Assembly (NCBI GenBank): GCA_951812855.1
Contig: OX638337.1
Span: 1,560,001 to 1,592,000 of the forward strand
Source of the DNA: an uncultured Lentisphaeria bacterium
GTDB lineage: Bacteria > Verrucomicrobiota > Lentisphaeria > JABSQK01 > JAJFLO01
Direction: 5' to 3'
Length of the DNA stretch: 32,000 nucleotides
Made by a program: the position numbers and the translations under genes. Below the pieces are notes generated by a model. That model worked only from the letters and a program-made list of their open reading frames with translations, did not search any database and was not told the DNA's origin. Of this stretch, positions 1 to 12,555 are shown one piece after another (the first letter of the stretch is position 1; the number at the start of each line of letters is the position of its first letter).

Positions 1-148
1 CCGAGCCATCACAATTTTTATTCTGGCTATACGTTTTTCTGCATCTTTCTTCTTTATCAACACCAGCAACAACCACATAGCCTGCATTCGCAAGACCACA
101 GGTCATTCCACCAGCGCCACAAAACAAATCGATCACAAATTTCCTCAT
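1..148 (-). CDS. DNA (cytosine-5)-methyltransferase, first 49 codons only (gene continues beyond the left edge)
   Basis: My reverse-strand translation from ATG at 146-148 gives MRKFVIDLFCGAGGMTCGLANAGYVVVAGVDKEERCRKTYSQNKNCDGS. DLFCGAGG is SAM-binding motif I (FxGxG) of C5 DNA methyltransferases. The start lies 2 nt after the stop (151-153) of the upstream ORF. Absent from the ORF track because it is truncated. Confidence 0.8.
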   Translation of the reverse strand, partial: MRKFVIDLFCGAGGMTCGLANAGYVVVAGVDKEERCRKTYSQNKNCDGS

Positions 149-150
149 AG

Positions 151-2499
151 TCACGATCCGTCTTCGCCACCTAACACATTAATGATTGAAAGTATATAAG
201 GTGCCATCGCCTGCGAACTTTTTTCTGCCTGTGAATCTGCATCGTCTGGATTTTCTGTTTCATCATAATGTCTATACACAGCCAAAGTTAAAAATCCGAG
301 GCATATTCTAAAGCGATTTTCATTCAATTTTATGGCCGCTTCATCGTTTCCTAATCTCATTTCTTCTAAACGTTCATGGTCTCTATTTACATAAACCATT
401 AGCCCTTCTTCTGAGTTAATGACTTTTGCTCCAGATTTTTCATCGAAACCGTATTCATCCCAATTAGATTTTTCTGCCCATTGCGTAGGGTCGGCTATTT
501 GTGGCTTCTCTGTGTTTTTTGTATCAGATTTTGTTGTGCCCCCAGATTTTGCAGGATTTTCTTCGGGTGTGATCTTTATCTTTATAGGGACTGTTAAAGG
601 AACAGGTCGCGGGCCGTGATCGTCAAAACCAATTTCAAAATCGATAACATCGCCAACTTGTTTATGTTTTGGAACCGAAACAGTAAATGTTGCCGTTCCA
701 TTGCGCAGGCTGGCGCTTCTTGGCAGATCTGCACTCGTCAATGAACACTTCACCCAGCCAGGGCTGTTGGTTCTGGAAAGATAATCATCGGCGGCATCTG
801 TGCCACATTTTATTTTTCGGTTTGCATTGACGGGAACTTCTTTTAAAAAATATTTATTTTGCCCTTCTTTGACAGGAGTCAAATTCAGAGGGTTTAAAAA
901 AGTAGGGAATTTCTTTCCTTCATACAACTCTGTTCCTCTTGGAGTTTTTATCGTTTTAATCGCCGCATTTCCAAAACCAAGAAGTTCTTTTATCATAGGA
1001 TCTCGTGCAATAAAATCGTTAAGCATTTTTTGGGTTTCTTCATCATTTTCAATTTTTTCTTTTGCCCGCCGCAGGCGAATAATTTTTGCGTATTGTTTTA
1101 GTTTAGAATCGTCTTTCAAGCGATCTTTTACCAATTTTTTCAACTCTCGGGATAGGTTGTTAATTATCATCCGCTCACGATCACCCATAAATATTGTTAA
1201 GGCATCTCTGTTCATTTCCTCACATTGAACGTTAATGATAAGGTGATTTTGAAGATCTCCGAGCTTTACGCTGTTCAGCAAGCCCGCATTTTCTGTTGCG
1301 TGAGTTTGGCCGTTGATAGTGTAAAATACACGCTTCCTGCTGTTCTCCATATAGTTGGGAAGTTTGCTAACGCCTGTAGCGATAATTCTAACTTTTCCCA
1401 ATTCAGGATTGGATAAGTCATCTTCGACCAAATGAACAAATTCAGTGGTTCCTTTTGCTGGAGCCTCAGTTGGAATTTCCGGATCTTGATTAGAAGGATC
1501 TGCAAACTCGGCATTGAGTATCACACTCATACCGCTAAATGTGCGATCTGCGATACCTTGTGCTCTGCGTTTTCCTTTCCCTTGTGTTAGTTTGGCATCA
1601 AAATCATATAAGCGAATTGGCAATGCACAATCCAAAAGATTCAGATTCAGCGCGTAATAAAGCCCGAAATCAACACCATGCGCGCCATCTCCTATGTCGT
1701 AATCAAACAATCTTACAACCGAACCTTGTGCTATCAATCCAATTTCCTTATCACCAAAAGACGGTATTGTGGAGGCTTTGAATTGTGGAATTTTGTCATC
1801 AGGTGCCAAATATTCGACGGTTGGCAGTTTTTTACCCTCCTTTATTTTCGGGACGCGAATCAAACTCCAGCCCCAGCTATCAGAATTTCGTTTTTTGCTG
1901 ACTATCAGTTTATAGTGCGGCTTGTCCGATTCTGAGCAAAACCGGATTGAACCGGTTGACCCCATATTGAACTTTCCCTGAACAAAGCCAATACCTTCTT
2001 TATTATTTTCACTCAGACTCATGAATGTGTCAGGAAATTCTGCTGGTAACTGACCTTCGCCGAAATCTACGACCGTAATGGTTGGCGTTTTCTTTTTCTT
2101 CTTGCCTCTCTTTATGCCAATTAAAATGCTCTTTTCTGCCAGCTCCCGCTGTTCGGTTGAACCTAAACTGGATAATTTTCCTTCATTTACGTTGTAAAAT
2201 TGCCGCACAGCTTCCTGCATGGATTGCGGTGCATTTTCGCCTGTTAAATCCGTTATTCCAGCCTCGTAGGCCTTGCGACACAAAACGGCATCAATAGCGT
2301 TTGTAATCAATTCAGTTAATGCTCCTACCGCGTTTGATTGTTGATTTGAAATAGTATCCCAATTCTTTTCTCGCTTGCCGTATGGCTTCCAGTCGTTGTC
2401 GTCGTTGAAGTTTTCAGCATCAATAATTTTCTGCACATCCTCCGTAGTAAAGGCTTGCAGCAATTCAGTCAGAACCTTTTTTGATTGGCTTTCTTTCAT
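151..2499 (-). CDS. GHKL (Bergerat-fold) ATPase, MORC/HATPase_c_3-like, with a ~600-aa uncharacterised C-terminal region
   Basis: 782-aa ORF. N-box ELITNAIDA (~aa 63-71), G1 box VVDFGEGQ (~aa 143-150) and G2 box GKFNMGSTGS (~aa 175-184) occur in canonical order. I recognise no TM segment, kinase H-box or nuclease motif in the rest. Appears translationally coupled to the downstream methyltransferase. Confidence 0.65.
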   Translation of the reverse strand: MKESQSKKVLTELLQAFTTEDVQKIIDAENFNDDNDWKPYGKREKNWDTISNQQSNAVGALTELITNAIDAVLCRKAYEAGITDLTGENAPQSMQEAVRQFYNVNEGKLSSLGSTEQRELAEKSILIGIKRGKKKKKTPTITVVDFGEGQLPAEFPDTFMSLSENNKEGIGFVQGKFNMGSTGSIRFCSESDKPHYKLIVSKKRNSDSWGWSLIRVPKIKEGKKLPTVEYLAPDDKIPQFKASTIPSFGDKEIGLIAQGSVVRLFDYDIGDGAHGVDFGLYYALNLNLLDCALPIRLYDFDAKLTQGKGKRRAQGIADRTFSGMSVILNAEFADPSNQDPEIPTEAPAKGTTEFVHLVEDDLSNPELGKVRIIATGVSKLPNYMENSRKRVFYTINGQTHATENAGLLNSVKLGDLQNHLIINVQCEEMNRDALTIFMGDRERMIINNLSRELKKLVKDRLKDDSKLKQYAKIIRLRRAKEKIENDEETQKMLNDFIARDPMIKELLGFGNAAIKTIKTPRGTELYEGKKFPTFLNPLNLTPVKEGQNKYFLKEVPVNANRKIKCGTDAADDYLSRTNSPGWVKCSLTSADLPRSASLRNGTATFTVSVPKHKQVGDVIDFEIGFDDHGPRPVPLTVPIKIKITPEENPAKSGGTTKSDTKNTEKPQIADPTQWAEKSNWDEYGFDEKSGAKVINSEEGLMVYVNRDHERLEEMRLGNDEAAIKLNENRFRICLGFLTLAVYRHYDETENPDDADSQAEKSSQAMAPYILSIINVLGGEDGS

Positions 2500-2577
2500 T
2501 AGACCTCATTTTCCTTCGCTGATTATTGGAATGTGCAATTTAGCTGTCAGTTCAGTGGCGGAAACAAGAATTCAATT

Positions 2578-2790
2578 TTATAGAACAACGTTAATGCTAA
2601 AGAATACTTCAAGTAGCTGATCCTTTGTTAAGGCATTGTTGAAAGATATTTGTGCATTAAATTTTGCTTTAGGATGGCTCTCATTTAACCCATCTAAAAC
2701 TTGATGTCTTGACAAAATGTATTGTTCAATATCATATTTACTTTCTGTAGATGGAACGTGAAATATATTTGCCACATTCCCTTTCACCAC
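2578..2790 (-). CDS. hypothetical small protein (GTG start; possibly a gene fragment)
   Basis: 70-aa ORF with no ATG start. The open frame extends 13 codons further upstream to a TGA. No recognisable motif. Same strand as the GHKL gene and 78 bp upstream of it. Confidence 0.3.
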   Translation of the reverse strand: MVKGNVANIFHVPSTESKYDIEQYILSRHQVLDGLNESHPKAKFNAQISFNNALTKDQLLEVFFSINVVL

Positions 2791-2852: not shown

Positions 2853-3170
2853 TTATTGTGCGACAAACATAAACTCGCCAGGGGGTGCCCGCCACATGAA
2901 AGCGTCGTCATTCACTGAGATTTCCACGATTACGAAATGTGATGATCCTTTATATATTATTTTTGCGCAGCCTTTATAGTCATATTCACTATTCTTAAAT
3001 ACTAGAACATTATCAACTTTCAAATTGTACTTTTGATAGCCTGAGTCTTCATTCAGGTATTCTTGCATTGATTTTTTGACCATTTCCCCGATATCTTCTC
3101 TTGATGTTCCACATCCAGACATTACGGCACTGATCATCATGCTTACGATTACTTGCATTACTTTTCTCAT
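2853..3170 (-). CDS. small lipoprotein, unknown function
   Basis: From Met14 of the 118-aa ORF the sequence reads MRKVMQVIVSMMISAVMSGCGTS, a signal peptide with lipobox (MSGC). AAGGA lies about 7 nt upstream of this ATG (3168-3170). Confidence 0.6.
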   Translation of the reverse strand: MRKVMQVIVSMMISAVMSGCGTSREDIGEMVKKSMQEYLNEDSGYQKYNLKVDNVLVFKNSEYDYKGCAKIIYKGSSHFVIVEISVNDDAFMWRAPPGEFMFVAQ

Positions 3171-3244
3171 TTTTTCCTTTCGAAATATTTTCCAAATACC
3201 AGATTGCATTCACTTTCTAGTCTGGATCTCGTTGTCGGCGAATC

Positions 3245-3457: not shown

Positions 3458-3946
3458 CTACTTCCGACATTTATAAATCCCATTTGGCTTTTCAGTACCT
3501 CCTTCGGGTGTTGAAGAAAAATCATAGAATAGACCTGTTCCGTCAGGTTTTATAATAAATGCATAGTCAGAGCCATTTGGACCCCAATCCCAGCGATGGT
3601 TTATACCTTTACGTTGATAGTCAGTGAATTCACCTGAGTAGCTACCATCATATAAAATAAAGCCTACCGATTTTAAATTTGGATTGTTAAACAAGCCAAC
3701 CTCAACTAACGTGTCTGTGTTATATACATAATCCTTGCATTTCCATGTAGTAAACTTACCCAATCTAGCTTCAATATAAGTTTCACCTCCAAGTATTATT
3801 GAGCGAGTCCCTGAAGGAGTTGTAGAAGGAATCGTAGAAGGAATCGTAGAAGGAATCGTAGAAGGAATCGTAGAAGGAATCGTCGCACATGAGGCCAGAA
3901 ATAGAGTGATCGATACAATGCCAATGCTTGTCAATGTTTTCTTCAT
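3458..3946 (-). CDS. lipoprotein with (TIPS)5 repeat linker, unknown function
   Basis: MKKTLTSIGIVSITLFLASCA is a signal peptide plus lipobox (LASC). It is followed directly by TIPSTIPSTIPSTIPSTIPSTTPSG and then a ~110-aa Trp/Tyr/Gly-rich globular part with two Cys. Confidence 0.75.
   Translation of the reverse strand: MKKTLTSIGIVSITLFLASCATIPSTIPSTIPSTIPSTIPSTTPSGTRSIILGGETYIEARLGKFTTWKCKDYVYNTDTLVEVGLFNNPNLKSVGFILYDGSYSGEFTDYQRKGINHRWDWGPNGSDYAFIIKPDGTGLFYDFSSTPEGGTEKPNGIYKCRK
3822..3881 (-). repeat. perfect 12-bp tandem repeat x5 (gtagaaggaatc), in frame, encoding TIPS x5
   Basis: Five identical contiguous units counted at 3822-3833, 3834-3845, 3846-3857, 3858-3869 and 3870-3881. A sixth degenerate unit precedes them (ggagtt variant, TTPS). 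Confidence 0.95.
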
Positions 3947-5855: not shown

Positions 5856-7262
5856 CTATAAATTCAACAGCATTTTAACCGGATCCTCACACTGTTGTTT
5901 GATCTTTACAAGAAATCGGACAGCGTCTGAACCGTCAACAAGGCGATGATCATAGGTCAACGCTAAATACATGATAGGCCGAATGGTAATTTCGCCGTTG
6001 ACGACAACAGGTCGTTCTACAATATTATGCATCCCCATGATTGCACTTTGAGGAGCATTTACAATGGGTGTAGAAAGCATTGACCCGAACACGCCGCCAT
6101 TGGTTATAGTAAATGTCCCGCCAGCTAATTCACTTATAGTTAACTTATTGTCACGCCCTTTGGCTGCTAATTCCAATATGGTTTTTTCAATCTCAAACAA
6201 ACTTAAAGATTCAGCATTGCGAATTACCGGGACAACTAATCCTTTGGGAGTAGAAACAGCGATTCCGACATCACAATAATCAAAATATGTAATCGACTCA
6301 TGGTCCATCTGGGAATTAATGATTGGGAATTGGTTAAGTGCCTGACATGCTGCTTTGGTGAAAAAAGACATGAAGCCCAGATTGACATCATGGGTTTTCT
6401 TAAATTCATCTTTATGCTTTTTTCGAATGTCCATAATCGCTGACATATCCAATTCGTTAAATGTTGTCAGGAGAGCTGCAGACTGCTGTGCATGAATCAG
6501 GCGTTGTGCAATTGTTTTTCTCATCCGAGATAATTTGTCTACATTAGATGATCTGTTAAACTGGGTATGATCATTCAAATTGCTTGAGGATTCGGTTGAT
6601 TTTGTTAGAATCTTACTCGGAATTTTTTCTTCCTTAACCTTTTGCTCCTGATTTGGGTCAGATTCAGTATCACCCGATTTTCGTAAGAGTGTGGTTGTTT
6701 CGTCGGGAGAAACTACCGGGAAGCCAGATTCATAAAAATTCATGAATTTATGCTTCGAGGAGGTTATCGCATCCTGTTTGTCACGCTCCTGGATAAAGTT
6801 AATGACATCTGCTTTTGTGATACGTCCACCTTTACCAGTTCCTTTAATTTCAGTGGAGGAAATATTATTTTCGGCCATTAATTTTCGAGCCGCCGGTGAT
6901 GGAATTGATACGTCATCAAATAGATCCGAATCATTGCCGTTACTATCATCTCTTACAACTGCAGGTTCTGAAATTTCCTTTTTTACGTCTTCTGGTTTAT
7001 TAACTTTGCTTTCGGCTTCTCCACTTGCGGATGTGTCGATAAAACCAACGGCTTGTCCGACCTTCACGGTTTCACCTTCATTTACGGTGATGGTTAATGT
7101 TCCCTCTGCTTCAGCGGTAACTTCAAGTGTTGCTTTTTCGGTTTCTAATTCAAGAACCGGATCATCCATGGCGACATAATCGCCATTTTGCTTAAACCAT
7201 CTGGCGATGTTACCTTCGGTAACCGATTCACCAGTTACAGGTACAATGATATCTACTTTCAT
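5856..7262 (-). CDS. sucB: dihydrolipoamide succinyltransferase (2-oxoglutarate dehydrogenase E2)
   Basis: Lipoyl domain with LETEKA lipoyl-lysine motif, E3-binding domain ([14 protein letters not shown]...[13 protein letters not shown]), catalytic domain ending in [18 protein letters not shown]. Start taken at Met8 (MKVDIIVP, 7260-7262) rather than the ORF-track Met1. Confidence 0.88.
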
Positions 7263-7767: not shown

Positions 7768-9705
7768 ATGTCAGAACCTATTTTTAAACCGATAAAAGAG
7801 TTTCAGGCTCAATCTTTTGTAAACAGTTTTGATCAATATAAATCATTATATGAAGAGAGCATAACAGATCTTGATGGATTATGGGAAAAAATAGCGAAAG
7901 AATATGTCACATGGTCCAAGCCGTTTTCCAGGGTGAAGGAGTACAATTATCACGATGCAGATATCAAATTCTATATAGATGGCAAGACTAATGTCAGTTA
8001 TAACTGTCTGGACAGGCATCTTGAAACACGTGGTGATCAAATTGCAATAATCTGGGAAGGTAATGAGCCTGGAGTTGATAAAAAGATAACATATAAACAG
8101 CTTCATCATGATGTTTGCCAGTTCGCAAATGTATTGAAGTCAAATAATGTAAAAAAAGGAGATCGGGTTACGATATATATGCCGATGATTCCTGAACTCA
8201 CAATTGCAATGCTGGCATGTGCACGTATTGGTGCAATTCATTCTATTGTTTTTGGTGGATTCTCTGCGGATTCGCTTAGGGGAAGAATTATTGACTGCCG
8301 GTCAGACACTGTCATCACATCAGATCAATTGTTACGGGGTAGTAAAATTATCCCCATGAAAGAGACCGTTGACAGTGCTGTTGAAGATCTGGATTTCGTA
8401 CAATCAGTATTCGTCTTTAAACGAACCGGTAGTGAGATCCCCTGGACAGATGGGCGCGATAAATGGTGGCATGACGAAATGTCTGTTGCAGAGACGAACT
8501 GTTCAGCAGAAGAAATGGACGCTGAAGACCCGCTTTTTATTCTCTATACTTCTGGTTCAACTGGTAAACCTAAGGGGGTAATGCATACCACTGGAGGCTA
8601 CAACGTATACACAGCGTTTACCCATAAATTAATATTTGATTACCACGATGGAGATATTTATTGGTGCACAGCTGATATTGGCTGGGTAACTGGACATTCA
8701 TATATCGTTTATGGTCCACTGACTAACGGAGCCACCACAATAATGTTTGAAGGGATACCCACATATCCAGATCCTGGTCGATTTTGGCAAATTGTGGATA
8801 AGTGGCAGGTCAATACGATATACACTGCACCCACGGCGATCAGAGCCCTGGCAAAGGCGGGGTTGAATTATGTTAAACCCTATAAGCTGGACAGTTTAAA
8901 ATTACTCGGGACAGTAGGAGAACCGATAAATCCTGAAGCCTGGATGTGGTATTGGGAAAATATTGGAAAAAAACGATGCCCGATTGTTGATACCTGGTGG
9001 CAAACTGAAACGGGTGGTATTCTTATCTCTCCGCTGCCGGGAGCAGTTCCTCAAAAACCGGGTTCTGCGACATTGCCATTTATTGGTATTAAACCTGTAA
9101 TTCTTGAACCTGAAAATGGCAGGGAATTGGAAGGTGAATGTCAGGGGGTATTGGCATTTAAGGATCCATGGCCGTCTCAAATGAGAGGTGTTTATGGAGA
9201 CAAATCTCGATTTAAGGAAACCTACTTTGTCCAGTATCCCGGATACTATTTTACAGGTGATGGTTGTCGAAGGGATGCAGACGGATATTATTGGATCACG
9301 GGTCGGGTCGACGATGTCATTAATATATCCGGGCATCGGCTGGGCAGTGCTGAGGTCGAGAGTGCACTTGTCTTGCATAACGATGTTGCTGAAGCAGCGG
9401 TTGTGGGCTCTCATCATGATATAAAAGGCCAGGGAATATATGCGTTTGTGATTTTGAATGAAGGGATTGTCGGGAACGATGAATTGCATAATGAATTAGT
9501 GCAGTTAGTCCGAAAGGAAATCGGGCCTGTTGCATCGCCGGATGTCATTCAATTTACTCCAGGTCTTCCAAAAACACGTTCAGGGAAGATTATGAGGAGG
9601 ATTTTACGGAAAATTGCAGATGATCAAATTGATGAGATTGGAGATGTTTCAACTTTGGCAGATCCGAGTATTGTAACTGAACTCGTTAAAAACGCAACGG
9701 CATGA
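7768..9705 (+). CDS. acs: acetyl-CoA synthetase
   Basis: 645 aa. AMP-binding signature [21 protein letters not shown]-terminal [27 protein letters not shown] upstream of the ATG. Confidence 0.97.
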
Positions 9706-10921: not shown

Positions 10922-11518
10922 ATGTCAAACGAAGAGAATAATCAGGATAAATCGGATAGAGAACTGATTACCTTAATCATCGATGGCGATATGGATGCAA
11001 TGGGTGATTTGATGGCACGGCATTCGTCAAAAGCCTACCAGATCAGCTATTCAATTCTCGGAAATAAAAATGATGCTGAAGAAGTAACTCAAGATGCATT
11101 TATCAAGGTTTATAGAGCATTGGCAAATTTTAGAGGAGATTCTGAATTTTCAACATGGATGTATCGTATTGTTGTTAATCAGGCACGAAATAAATATCGA
11201 TGGAACAAACGGCGTGGATCTCAGGTAAATATAAGTATAGATAAAGATACGGAAACAGATGATGGATCAAGTATTCCGTTTGATTTACCAGATACCGGTA
11301 AAAAACCTGACCATGAGATAATTTTTAAAGAATGGGAAGGTGAAATTGCCGAGGAAATCAAAAAACTCCCTGCTGTAAATCGTGAGGCTTTGATGCTAAG
11401 AAATGTCAAACATCTTTCTTATGAACAAATCGCTGAATTGCTGGATTGCAAAATTGGTACCATAAAGTCAAGAATCGCACGTGCTCGAGAAGAACTGAGA
11501 AAGCGGGTGAGCAGGTAA
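10922..11518 (+). CDS. ECF-type RNA polymerase sigma factor (sigma-70 family, group 4)
   Basis: Region 2 (DAEEVTQDAFIKVYRALANFRGDSEFSTWMYRIVVNQARN) and region 4 HTH (LSYEQIAELLDCKIGTIKSRIARAREEL). Confidence 0.9.
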   Translation: MSNEENNQDKSDRELITLIIDGDMDAMGDLMARHSSKAYQISYSILGNKNDAEEVTQDAFIKVYRALANFRGDSEFSTWMYRIVVNQARNKYRWNKRRGSQVNISIDKDTETDDGSSIPFDLPDTGKKPDHEIIFKEWEGEIAEEIKKLPAVNREALMLRNVKHLSYEQIAELLDCKIGTIKSRIARAREELRKRVSR

Positions 11519-11580
11519 AGGCAAATAGAATTATCGTGTAATTAAATGATATCGATCAATAACTTGTATTAATATTTATT

Positions 11581-12555
11581 ATGGAAAAGAAGATAAAAAT
11601 GAAAAATGATTGCCCATTTTTTGATGATTTGAGTGCGTGGTATGATAAGGAAATATCAGATAACTTCCAGGCTCATGTTGATGAATGCGATGAGTGCCTG
11701 GAGACGTTAAAGAGCTTTGAATCCTACGACCGTTTAATTACCACCAATGTTGCTGCTAACTCAATTCAATTGGAACAAATTAAGAATAATTGTTTGGAAG
11801 AACTGAGTAAGGAACACACGAGCGATTCACCAATATTGCCGATTCCTATTTGGGTAAAAATCGCAGCATGTGCCATGCTCATAGGTCTAATTGTTGTTCT
11901 AAATGATCAGACTGATAATCTCGATTCAAATCAAATAGTACATGCTCCGGTGGCCGCCCCTGTTGGTGGCAGTGATGGTCAACAAAGTGAAATTACCAAT
12001 GATGCAATAAAAGAGGGAGATAATCTATTTCATAATGTCAAGGATGTGGATAAACCAAATGTGGTTAAGGAAGAAATGACGGAAGTAATCGCCGGCAGGA
12101 AAATGCATAAAGCTGAAGCACCAGATTTATTGACAAAACAGCATAATAATATGGGGAAGAGTCAGTTGGCTTTGCCTTCAATGCAACTTGTCGGATTTGG
12201 CTATGACGGTGCTAAACGATCTGGAAGTTCAAGAATACTGAATGTCAAAAATGATAATGTTGCTGATTATGTTCATCATGTATGGTTGGTGAAAGATCCT
12301 TCAGTACCATTACAGACATTAAAAAAGATATTACCAAATCAGAGAGGTGTGCTGGATGAATTGATTAGCGAATACCAGGATCGATATCATCTTCAGTTCA
12401 ATATCGTTGATAGAAACCTTCAAATTTTAGTCGATCATTTTGATGAATTGGGATTTCAATTACTTCGCCCCGACAATCCACAGCCTGGGTCCGATAATGC
12501 GGTTAAGTTTGCTGACAAATTTGTAAAATACGATGTTGATTTTGTAAAAGAATAA
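11581..12555 (+). CDS. anti-sigma factor, zinc-finger (HxxxCxxC) type, single TM, ~220-aa extracytoplasmic domain of unknown fold
   Basis: Directly downstream of the ECF sigma gene. N-terminal HVDECDEC motif. One TM helix (IWVKIAACAMLIGLIVVL). Confidence 0.7.
   Translation: MEKKIKMKNDCPFFDDLSAWYDKEISDNFQAHVDECDECLETLKSFESYDRLITTNVAANSIQLEQIKNNCLEELSKEHTSDSPILPIPIWVKIAACAMLIGLIVVLNDQTDNLDSNQIVHAPVAAPVGGSDGQQSEITNDAIKEGDNLFHNVKDVDKPNVVKEEMTEVIAGRKMHKAEAPDLLTKQHNNMGKSQLALPSMQLVGFGYDGAKRSGSSRILNVKNDNVADYVHHVWLVKDPSVPLQTLKKILPNQRGVLDELISEYQDRYHLQFNIVDRNLQILVDHFDELGFQLLRPDNPQPGSDNAVKFADKFVKYDVDFVKE

Follow-up and report, generated by a model that had tools for sequence, protein, structure and literature searches.

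What task could be shared by a large ATPase of an unannotated family and the C5 DNA methyltransferase whose gene begins two nucleotides behind it, and is such a pair a whole system or the end of a longer one? The question is raised at the left edge of a 32,000-nucleotide stretch of DNA from an uncultured Lentisphaeria bacterium (GenBank assembly GCA_951812855.1, contig OX638337.1, positions 1,560,001 to 1,592,000 of the forward strand), hereafter the window, where a GHKL-type ATPase gene is read from the minus strand and the methylase gene that follows it is cut by the window edge. The reading that we favour, at a probability of roughly 0.45, is that ATPase and methylase form a mobile, methylation-linked defence module of the restriction-modification (R-M) type, complete as two genes and situated in a variable chromosomal region. 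Coordinates are those of the window unless a locus is named, and the features of the pair all lie on the minus strand.

The ATPase gene occupies 151..2499 (stop codon 151-153 included), starts with ATG and encodes 782 residues; the call is supported by the open reading frame (ORF), by homologues and by an AlphaFold2 model. Three Bergerat-fold motifs were read on the sequence, namely motif I (E63-x3-N67-x2-D70, with ELITNAIDA as residues 63-71; 2287-2313), motif II (D145-x-G-x-G149, with VVDFGEGQ as residues 143-150; 2050-2073) and motif III (G175-K-F-N-M-G-S-T-G183, with GKFNMGSTGS as residues 175-184; 1948-1977), and a fourth, G210-x-S/T212 (residues 210-212, S212 in the window protein), was taken from conserved columns. 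Motifs I-IV lie in an ATP-binding domain of approximately residues 37-330 (1510..2391, boundaries from the secondary structure of the model), which was assigned from invariant columns, a fold match and a sub-threshold HATPase_c_3 match. Residues E63, N67, D70, D145, G147, G149, G175, K176, N178, M179, G180 and G183 are 100% invariant across 43 homologues, and among 71 family members with identities down to ~27% conservation is 90% or higher at the same ATP-site residues and also at G210 and T212 of motif IV. This invariance or near-invariance argues that the GHKL motifs are not chance occurrences, and the 782-residue frame with three motifs in canonical order, from which the original prediction had started, was found in place and conserved in both sets of homologues.

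The ATPase stop codon (TGA, 151-153) is followed by two nucleotides (CT) and then by the methylase ATG (146-148), the short gap to a C5-methyltransferase start that had been noted before. The 49 methylase codons up to the window edge (1..148) read MRKFVIDLFCGAGG..., include motif I (DLFCGAGG) and match PF00145 (DNA_methylase, E=1.9e-9). The best promoter-like site of the region, a candidate sigma-70-like operon promoter (CTGACA-17-AATAAT, 10/12 positions, 2522..2550, equivalent to 3069-3097 of the contig described below) assigned by consensus match only, lies ~22 nucleotides upstream of the ATPase start codon. Together, the two-nucleotide junction and the upstream promoter-like site point to a single operon in which the ATPase would be transcribed just ahead of the methylase. 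There was no compositional sign of recent transfer in the ATPase-methylase pair, whose GC content (~0.40) is the same as that of its flanks; the value is lower (0.33) only in a SLATT/TIR segment further left.

An exact-sequence look-up located the 782-residue protein on a second sequence, a 21-kb metagenome contig (L001), and because the exact reverse complement of window positions 1-2499 is present there, L001 can be used to extend the window leftwards (5619 minus the position on L001 gives that in the window). The left neighbour proved to be a full-length methyltransferase of 388 residues (L001 5471-6637, PF00145 E=3.8e-48) that runs ~1.0 kb past the window edge. Its FxGxG, PCQ, ENV, QxRxR and GNAxP blocks are complete when aligned to the catalytic blocks of M.HaeIII and, as judged from its sequence, the methylase is catalytically complete and of the Dcm type; assignment of its target specificity from solved relatives was abandoned, the relatives being too distant. 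To the left of the methylase, the rest of L001 carries a SNF2-like fragment, small unannotated ORFs, a SLATT_1/DUF4231 gene with a ThsB-type TIR gene, RDD, DUF6978 with DUF1828/1829, gmk and dsbD. No remnant of a Vsr gene, of a 75-residue partner or of a second GHKL gene, all known from related loci, was found in the window or in L001. Because nothing else of a system is present on the recovered contig, the locus is read as a two-gene module and not as the end of a bigger one; the original prediction had made the pair the right-hand end of a system with its other genes left of position 1, and such a larger system is ruled out by the contig, which holds only the rest of the methylase and unrelated modules.

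Gene neighbourhoods were surveyed by calling ORFs in 79 loci, clustering and searching the flanks and annotating representatives with Pfam. The loci fall into a close clade of at least 43% identity to the window protein (28 loci) and a distant clade of ~27-34% identity (51 loci). In 23 of the 28 close-clade loci, a methylase of the same C5 family stands directly downstream of the ATPase gene, and the remainder are mostly contig ends or broken genes. Pairwise identities of ATPase and Dcm are correlated across these loci (r=0.74, a value reached in 0 of 2000 permutations), so that by sequence comparison the two proteins co-diverge and are co-inherited in the clade of the window. One copy (L002) is a bare two-gene unit beside transketolase and GAPDH genes, and its position among housekeeping genes indicates that the two genes move as a unit. 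Inactivated ATPase genes stand beside a retained methylase at L007 (frameshift) and L025 (truncation), and at L018 the DDE transposase of an insertion sequence interrupts the ATPase gene, with no methylase found nearby. R genes commonly decay beside a retained methylase. The truncated copy (L025 8001-11234, 63% identity) stops after residue 380. Where its C-terminal half would lie there is an HNH_2 gene (253 residues, PF13391 E=1e-12), immediately followed by a gene of the same Dcm family (59% identity); either the R-side gene was exchanged naturally or a mobile HNH gene was inserted.

The ATPase is hard to place by sequence. Against the Pfam model HATPase_c_3 (PF13589), to which the original prediction had linked it as a MORC/paraMORC-type protein, it scores 17.7 bits (E=0.004) and does not reach the cut-off of 25 bits; E-values of 0.01 or better were obtained for only 12 of the 43 homologues (best 1.4e-5), and profile-profile comparison with a bona fide HATPase_c_3 family gave a probability of 2%, in which motifs II and III nonetheless align in register. 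Membership of that family is accordingly not supported. NCBIfam returned no equivalog, its sole match being far below threshold and to an unrelated competence-regulator model (E=0.015), and a family profile search found no PDB sequences. Two matches in the helical segment were discarded as compositional: PADLOC PDC-S06 (E=5e-4), where seven other family members give no PADLOC match, and Pfam Com_YlbF, which recurs in only one of the 43 members.

Structure prediction was more informative. The full-length AlphaFold2 model (mean predicted local distance difference test score, pLDDT, 79; predicted template modelling score 0.64) was matched by Foldseek to Hsp90, TRAP1, HtpG, TopoVI-B and the MutL N-terminal domain with probability 1.00 and E-values of 9e-11 to 5e-6 over 410-500 columns. 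There were 62 matches with E≤0.001, and the best 50 of the 62 all belong to the Hsp90/TopoVI-B/MutL class, with TM-scores of only ~0.3; the alignments reach into the Hsp90 middle domain, the TopoVI-B transducer and the MutL N-terminal domain (450-490 columns). On this model the ATPase has a GHKL fold with a MutL/Hsp90/TopoVI-B-like middle domain; within the GHKL superfamily it lies far from the other members.

Beyond the ATP site lie ~600 residues in which the original prediction had recognised no domain. That holds at the sequence level, and the models now assign four regions: a middle (transducer/S5-like) domain at approximately residues 340-430 (1210..1482, approximate boundaries from Foldseek alignments and conservation); a helical segment, by model secondary structure, at ~431-506 (982..1209); an immunoglobulin-like (Ig-like) β-sandwich at ~536-645 (565..894), from the C-terminal model and conservation; and a small α/β unit with a long helical hairpin at ~669-779 (163..495), from models and conservation, which gave no significant fold match. 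When the C-terminal 258 residues were modelled alone (pLDDT 84), the Ig-like sandwich, the small α/β unit and the hairpin (720-775) were obtained, and in fold searches of PDB and BFVD this model matched only generic folds of the Ig/cadherin type (E ~1e-4). Conserved family-wide outside the ATP site (71 members) are N396-G397-Q398 (1306-1314) in the middle domain, R441 in the helical segment, T567-D568...Y573..R576..G581 in the Ig-like sandwich and N705-x-D707-N708 in the α/β unit; the N396-G-Q398 loop and R441 are candidate phosphate-contacting residues, and the C-terminal hairpin unit is a candidate dimerisation domain. A β-hairpin and helix at residues 691-715 was considered as an HNH (ββα-Me) finger and rejected, as it has no conserved histidine and only N705, D707 and N708 are conserved. 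The search for domains hidden in residues 200-782 thus yielded a transducer-like fold, but no nuclease and, at the C terminus, only generic Ig-like matches.

If ATPase and methylase are a defence module, the methylase would mark host DNA with 5-methylcytosine and the ATPase would act on DNA without the mark, following the logic proposed for MORC/paraMORC proteins (PMC2292703). By analogy with other GHKL-plus-transducer proteins, the ATPase would work as a dimer, its two subunits perhaps held together by the modelled C-terminal hairpin, and on binding of ATP the N-terminal domains would shut to form a clamp around DNA. With no recognisable nuclease in the ATPase, damage would have to come from a cryptic site, from a nuclease in trans or from entrapment of DNA. 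The first could be an unrecognised active site built from the C-terminal motifs (T567-D...Y573..R576 and N705-x-D-N708); the second could be supplied by proteins such as the Vsr, HNH, SIR2 or GHKL-HEPN products encoded adjacently in relatives, none of which is present at the window locus; the third would be ATP-driven and non-nucleolytic.

Several results weigh against this defence module. A nuclease or effector domain was not detected in the ATPase by Pfam, NCBIfam, PADLOC, PDB sequence search, Foldseek with the full model or the C-terminal fold search, and because no nuclease was found, restriction is something that we infer. Methylation-linked defence, as first proposed, is to that extent borne out in part: the co-diverging pair of R-M type is conserved in its own clade, but a restriction activity would not be accounted for by any recognised domain. 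Co-divergence may also arise from co-transfer alone. Two homologues of 54-55% identity (L009 and L017) are intact solitary copies by rpoZ/spoT with no methylase in their 8-kb flanks, which implies that the ATPase is not necessarily lethal without a linked methylase. Finally, linkage is weak in the distant clade, where the scanned flanks of the 51 loci contain ~11 methylases. Conserved methyltransferase linkage, on which the original prediction depended, stands for the clade of the window (23/28 loci, with co-divergence) and fails for the family as a whole.

That family is large, horizontally scattered and mobile. A word-indexed search found at least 397 relatives, the best 120 of which are nearly all of ~780-800 residues (with a few shorter partials), are unnamed or called "hypothetical" and have an empty Pfam field in all but one case. 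An exhaustive hidden Markov model search, counted as clusters at 50% identity, gave 2,202 clusters at E≤1e-3, 1,490 at E≤1e-10 and 703 at E≤1e-30; almost all are 750-830 residues long and match end to end, a fixed architecture with no fusions. Members occur in 412 of 185,579 reference species of Bacteria and Archaea, in a patchy distribution that includes Proteobacteria, Bacteroidota, Bacillota, Chloroflexota, Candidate Phyla Radiation lineages, methanogens and haloarchaea. Eight distant copies are plasmid-borne, all annotated "hypothetical protein", and there were no phage-borne copies. None of the curated models in Pfam, NCBIfam and PADLOC captures the family, and targeted literature searches found no paper describing it.

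The alternative that survives best, though itself unlikely, is that the ATPase is a standalone defence sensor with swappable partners, independent of methylation in the manner of Shedu/paraMORC3-type proteins, and that Dcm merely travels with it or was recruited secondarily. The intact solitary copies at L009 and L017 speak for it, as does the distant clade, where most loci have no methylase. The methylases that do occur there are of mixed kinds, six N6_N4 enzymes and five divergently transcribed C5 enzymes (in Alphaproteobacteria), with a few Type I or Dam enzymes nearby; methylase coupling is clade-specific and not general to the family. Coupled partners also vary. Over all loci they comprise a 75-residue protein (18), PIN (9) and an unannotated 338-residue protein (7); in the distant clade alone the counts are 10, 8 and 7, with HARE-HTH (3), HNH (2-3) and SIR2 (1) in addition. 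Neighbours of the defence-island type, among them Mrr, Type I R-M and AAA_15/21 genes, are frequent near distant members. On the other side are the fixed, translationally coupled and co-diverging position of the methylase in 23 of 28 close-clade loci and the two-gene unit at L002, which stands alone between housekeeping genes.

Some of these partner genes were located individually. A SIR2_2 gene is coupled directly downstream of a distant ATPase gene at L038 (4769-5806), and HNH endonuclease genes are so placed at L051 (10356-11345) and L055 (3179-3883); at L051 the HNH gene is followed by a gene for a fusion of Type I HsdM with an ADP-ribosylglycohydrolase domain. The unannotated protein of ~75 residues is encoded directly upstream of the ATPase, often overlapping its start codon, in 18 of the 79 loci (8 close, 10 distant; for example, L016 7727-7951, L010 622-858, L038 2216-2440 and L057 7745-7978); it carries the motif K-F-x-x-L-A-x-x-R-V...L-I-G-N-L-S-N-x-x-x-Y-x-Y, is covered by no Pfam family and does not occur in the window. 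A 70-residue ORF upstream of the ATPase gene in the window (2578-2790) was considered as a conserved partner or controller and rejected, having no homology to the 75-residue partner and no Pfam match. In six close-clade loci (L006, L012, L013, L022, L023 and L024), and as a short fragment in a seventh, the methylase gene is followed by one for a second GHKL protein of ~541-567 residues with HATPase_c_3 (E=9e-23) and HEPN-type Hypoth_Ymh (E=4e-22) domains (for example, L013 12065-13690), which matches the PADLOC "REase_II" profiles PDLC03419 and PDLC03485 and the PD-Lambda-3_B/Aga_HEPN profiles. At these loci two unrelated GHKL ATPases flank one methylase.

Less probable again is a role in repair, in which the ATPase would be a MutL-like helper of Dcm/Vsr very-short-patch (VSP) repair that stimulates Vsr at the T:G mismatches left by deamination of 5-methylcytosine; the module would then keep down the mutations that the methylase brings about, and foreign DNA would not be attacked. 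This idea draws on the Vsr gene (PF03852, E=6e-24) present in 15 of the 28 close-clade loci, typically inserted between those for ATPase and Dcm so that stop and start codons overlap, on a predicted fold resembling the MutL N-terminal domain, on an ATPase without its own nuclease that co-diverges with Dcm, and on the functional interaction of MutL and Vsr established in E. coli (cited in PMC2292703). The window module has neither Vsr nor a remnant of it, however, and family members pair with N4/N6 methylases, HNH, SIR2, PIN or nothing, where no 5-methylcytosine deamination problem exists. Vsr accompanies the C5 methylases of many ordinary R-M systems and is not specific to the ATPase, and repair genes are not typically so patchy and mobile in their distribution. 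If support of Dcm/Vsr repair were nevertheless correct, the ATPase would be a mobile analogue of MutL.

We consider doubtful, and a little more so than the repair role, a mechanism that dispenses with cutting altogether, in which a nuclease-free, methylation-reading dimeric clamp traps or compacts unmarked DNA and blocks its replication or expression. Such a clamp would do in prokaryotes what MORC proteins do in eukaryotes and would apply R-M logic without restriction. In a variant of the same idea, the T-D...Y..R motif of the Ig-like domain could form a new type of DNA-cleaving site, for example one with a topoisomerase-like tyrosine.

Improbable, too, is that the ATPase is an accessory factor of the methylase that loads, targets or regulates Dcm in an epigenetic role instead of opposing it. 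A shared operon, co-divergence, the lack of an effector domain in the ATPase and the part played by eukaryotic MORC proteins in methylation-linked silencing (PMC8277788) would all suit such a factor. C5 methylases of the Dcm type are autonomous enzymes, however, and some family members have no methylase or one of an unrelated class. Moreover, the ATPase decays while Dcm is kept at L007 and L025, a pattern more in keeping with an antagonist than with a component that is needed.

A housekeeping identity (a divergent MutL, Hsp90/HtpG, topoisomerase subunit or sensor kinase) is hinted at by the best fold matches, which are Hsp90-family chaperones, TopoVI-B and MutL, but is very improbable and was rejected, in agreement with the original prediction, on the missing NCBIfam equivalog, above-threshold Pfam match and PDB sequence relative, TM-scores of only ~0.3, the scattered taxonomy of 412 among 185,579 reference species, and the lack of a kinase dimerisation/His domain, Toprim, a TopoVI-A partner or MutL C-terminal endonuclease motifs.

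The DNA around the pair was also annotated. Just past the end of the Dcm gene, L001 carries a 75-residue ORF (6632-6859, minus strand, opposite to the methylase) that matches only positions 228-288 of 290 of PF00176, the C-terminal end of the SNF2-related domain, below the cut-off (E=6e-5), and finds no sequence in the PDB; a decayed helicase gene may have left it behind. Superfamily II (SF-II) helicases are typical partners in MORC-type operons. At L001 7733-8553, ~2.1-2.9 kb beyond the left window edge, a co-oriented pair encodes a SLATT_1/DUF4231 protein with two transmembrane segments (139 residues, E=8e-23) and a ThsB-type TIR protein (8155-8553, 132 residues, E=7e-21), and resembles a defence module of two genes that is independent of the ATPase-Dcm pair next to it. 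Overlapping genes for DUF6978 (135 residues, E=1e-36) and DUF1828+DUF1829 (255 residues) proteins follow in the same variable region (L001 9556-10727).

To the right of the ATPase gene, the 70-residue ORF and two predicted lipoproteins make up an orphan islet ahead of lpdA. One lipoprotein (3458-3946, minus strand, 162 residues) has an LASC lipobox and a repeat at 3813-3883 (5.9 copies of a 12-nucleotide tandem unit encoding (PSTI)n); the second, smaller one lies at 2853-3209, and neither belongs to a Pfam family. It is plausible that this islet is an accessory island, as had been suggested. An extracytoplasmic function (ECF)-type sigma factor (198 residues) is followed by a 324-residue protein without a Pfam match (10922-12555), which may be the cognate anti-sigma factor. 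Elsewhere the window carries ordinary housekeeping genes (lpdA, sucB, acetyl-CoA synthetase, the suf operon and a Mur ligase), and tRNA genes are absent.

That GHKL ATPases encoded next to DNA methylases are restriction components was predicted in 2008, and almost none of these ATPases has been tested since; the one validated GHKL case, Shedu type I-D, has an obvious nuclease, and the family described here has none that is recognisable. With two genes and one promoter, the window module offers an easy experimental entry to the questions of how an ATP-driven clamp would tell methylated from unmethylated DNA and of what inflicts the damage in a system with no visible nuclease. If phage defence is its function, a widespread system has been overlooked by current defence finders.

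Among known systems, the closest in theme are the MORC/paraMORC families, whose GHKL and S5 domains were predicted in R-M operons with Dcm and Vsr (Iyer, Abhiman & Aravind 2008, PMC2292703); a GHKL-plus-transducer ATPase beside Dcm/Vsr in mobile R-M-like operons is thus already known as a theme. Like paraMORC1-5 (PMC2292703), the ATPase family combines an N-terminal GHKL domain with intact ATP motifs and a MutL/TopoVI-B/Hsp90-type middle domain, occurs in operons with cytosine methylases and Vsr and is sporadic in Bacteria and Archaea. Unlike MORC and paraMORC proteins, it misses the HATPase_c_3 threshold and shows negligible profile-profile similarity, and the window module has no SF-II helicase or restriction-endonuclease (RE)-fold partner of the kind found in their operons. 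No MORC gene was seen adjoining family members, and the MORC-proper motif GhXhhpXXRhl (PMC2292703) was not noticed among the conserved columns of the family, no formal alignment to MORC sequences having been made.

The Ig-like sandwich and hairpin of the ATPase also differ from the distinguishing elements of the individual paraMORC groups. For the ExxxH motif of paraMORC2, residues 340-440 contain no conserved E or H among the 71 members, only N396, G397, Q398, F437 and R441. For the RE-fold nuclease of paraMORC3/Shedu type I-D (DUF4263, E-D-ExK), there was no Pfam or PADLOC match, no such fold and no conserved D...(D/E)xK. For the TIR domain of paraMORC4, none was found in the ATPase by Pfam or fold search, and the ThsB-like TIR gene ~2.7 kb further left (L001 8155-8553) is paired with SLATT and is not conserved next to homologues. 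For the HxH motif of paraMORC5, the C-terminal 250 residues contain no conserved histidines. ParaMORC1, compared by description only, is compatible with the family in its "distinct conserved C-terminal extension" and HNH neighbours, which the ATPase family has occasionally (L051, L055 and L025).

VcSduA, a paraMORC3/Shedu type I-D protein in which GHKL is fused to a DUF4263 PD-(D/E)xK nuclease and both ATPase and nuclease residues are needed for phage defence (PMC12137116), offers the strongest functional precedent for defence by a GHKL protein and encourages the proposed action of the window protein on unmarked DNA. Like VcSduA, the window protein is single, large and GHKL-headed, its family is found in defence islands and a clamp-like dimer is predicted; unlike it, the window protein has no DUF4263 or PD-(D/E)xK signature or fold, and its clade is methylase-coupled, whereas VcSduA is methylase-independent. 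With MutL the ATPase shares the GHKL and transducer fold and the genomic company of Dcm and, in relatives, Vsr; E. coli MutL likewise carries no nuclease but activates one of the RE fold that is a separate protein. It differs from MutL in having no sequence-level relationship, no MutL C-terminal domain, a mobile and patchy instead of universal distribution and, in the window module, no Vsr. Classical Type II R-M systems of the Dcm type resemble the module in their two adjacent, co-oriented genes, one of them for a motif-complete C5 methylase, in the frequency of Vsr among relatives and in the inactivation of R-side genes beside a retained M gene. The module departs from them in an R-side protein that would be ATP-dependent and in which sequence and fold methods detected no endonuclease catalytic domain; unlike the GHKL entries under PADLOC "REase_II" (PDLC03419 and PDLC03485), the ATPase matches none of the REase profiles of PADLOC. 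What is new here is a GHKL family that is large and unannotated and has a distinctive C-terminal architecture without a recognisable nuclease; the window shows it in a minimal two-gene form.

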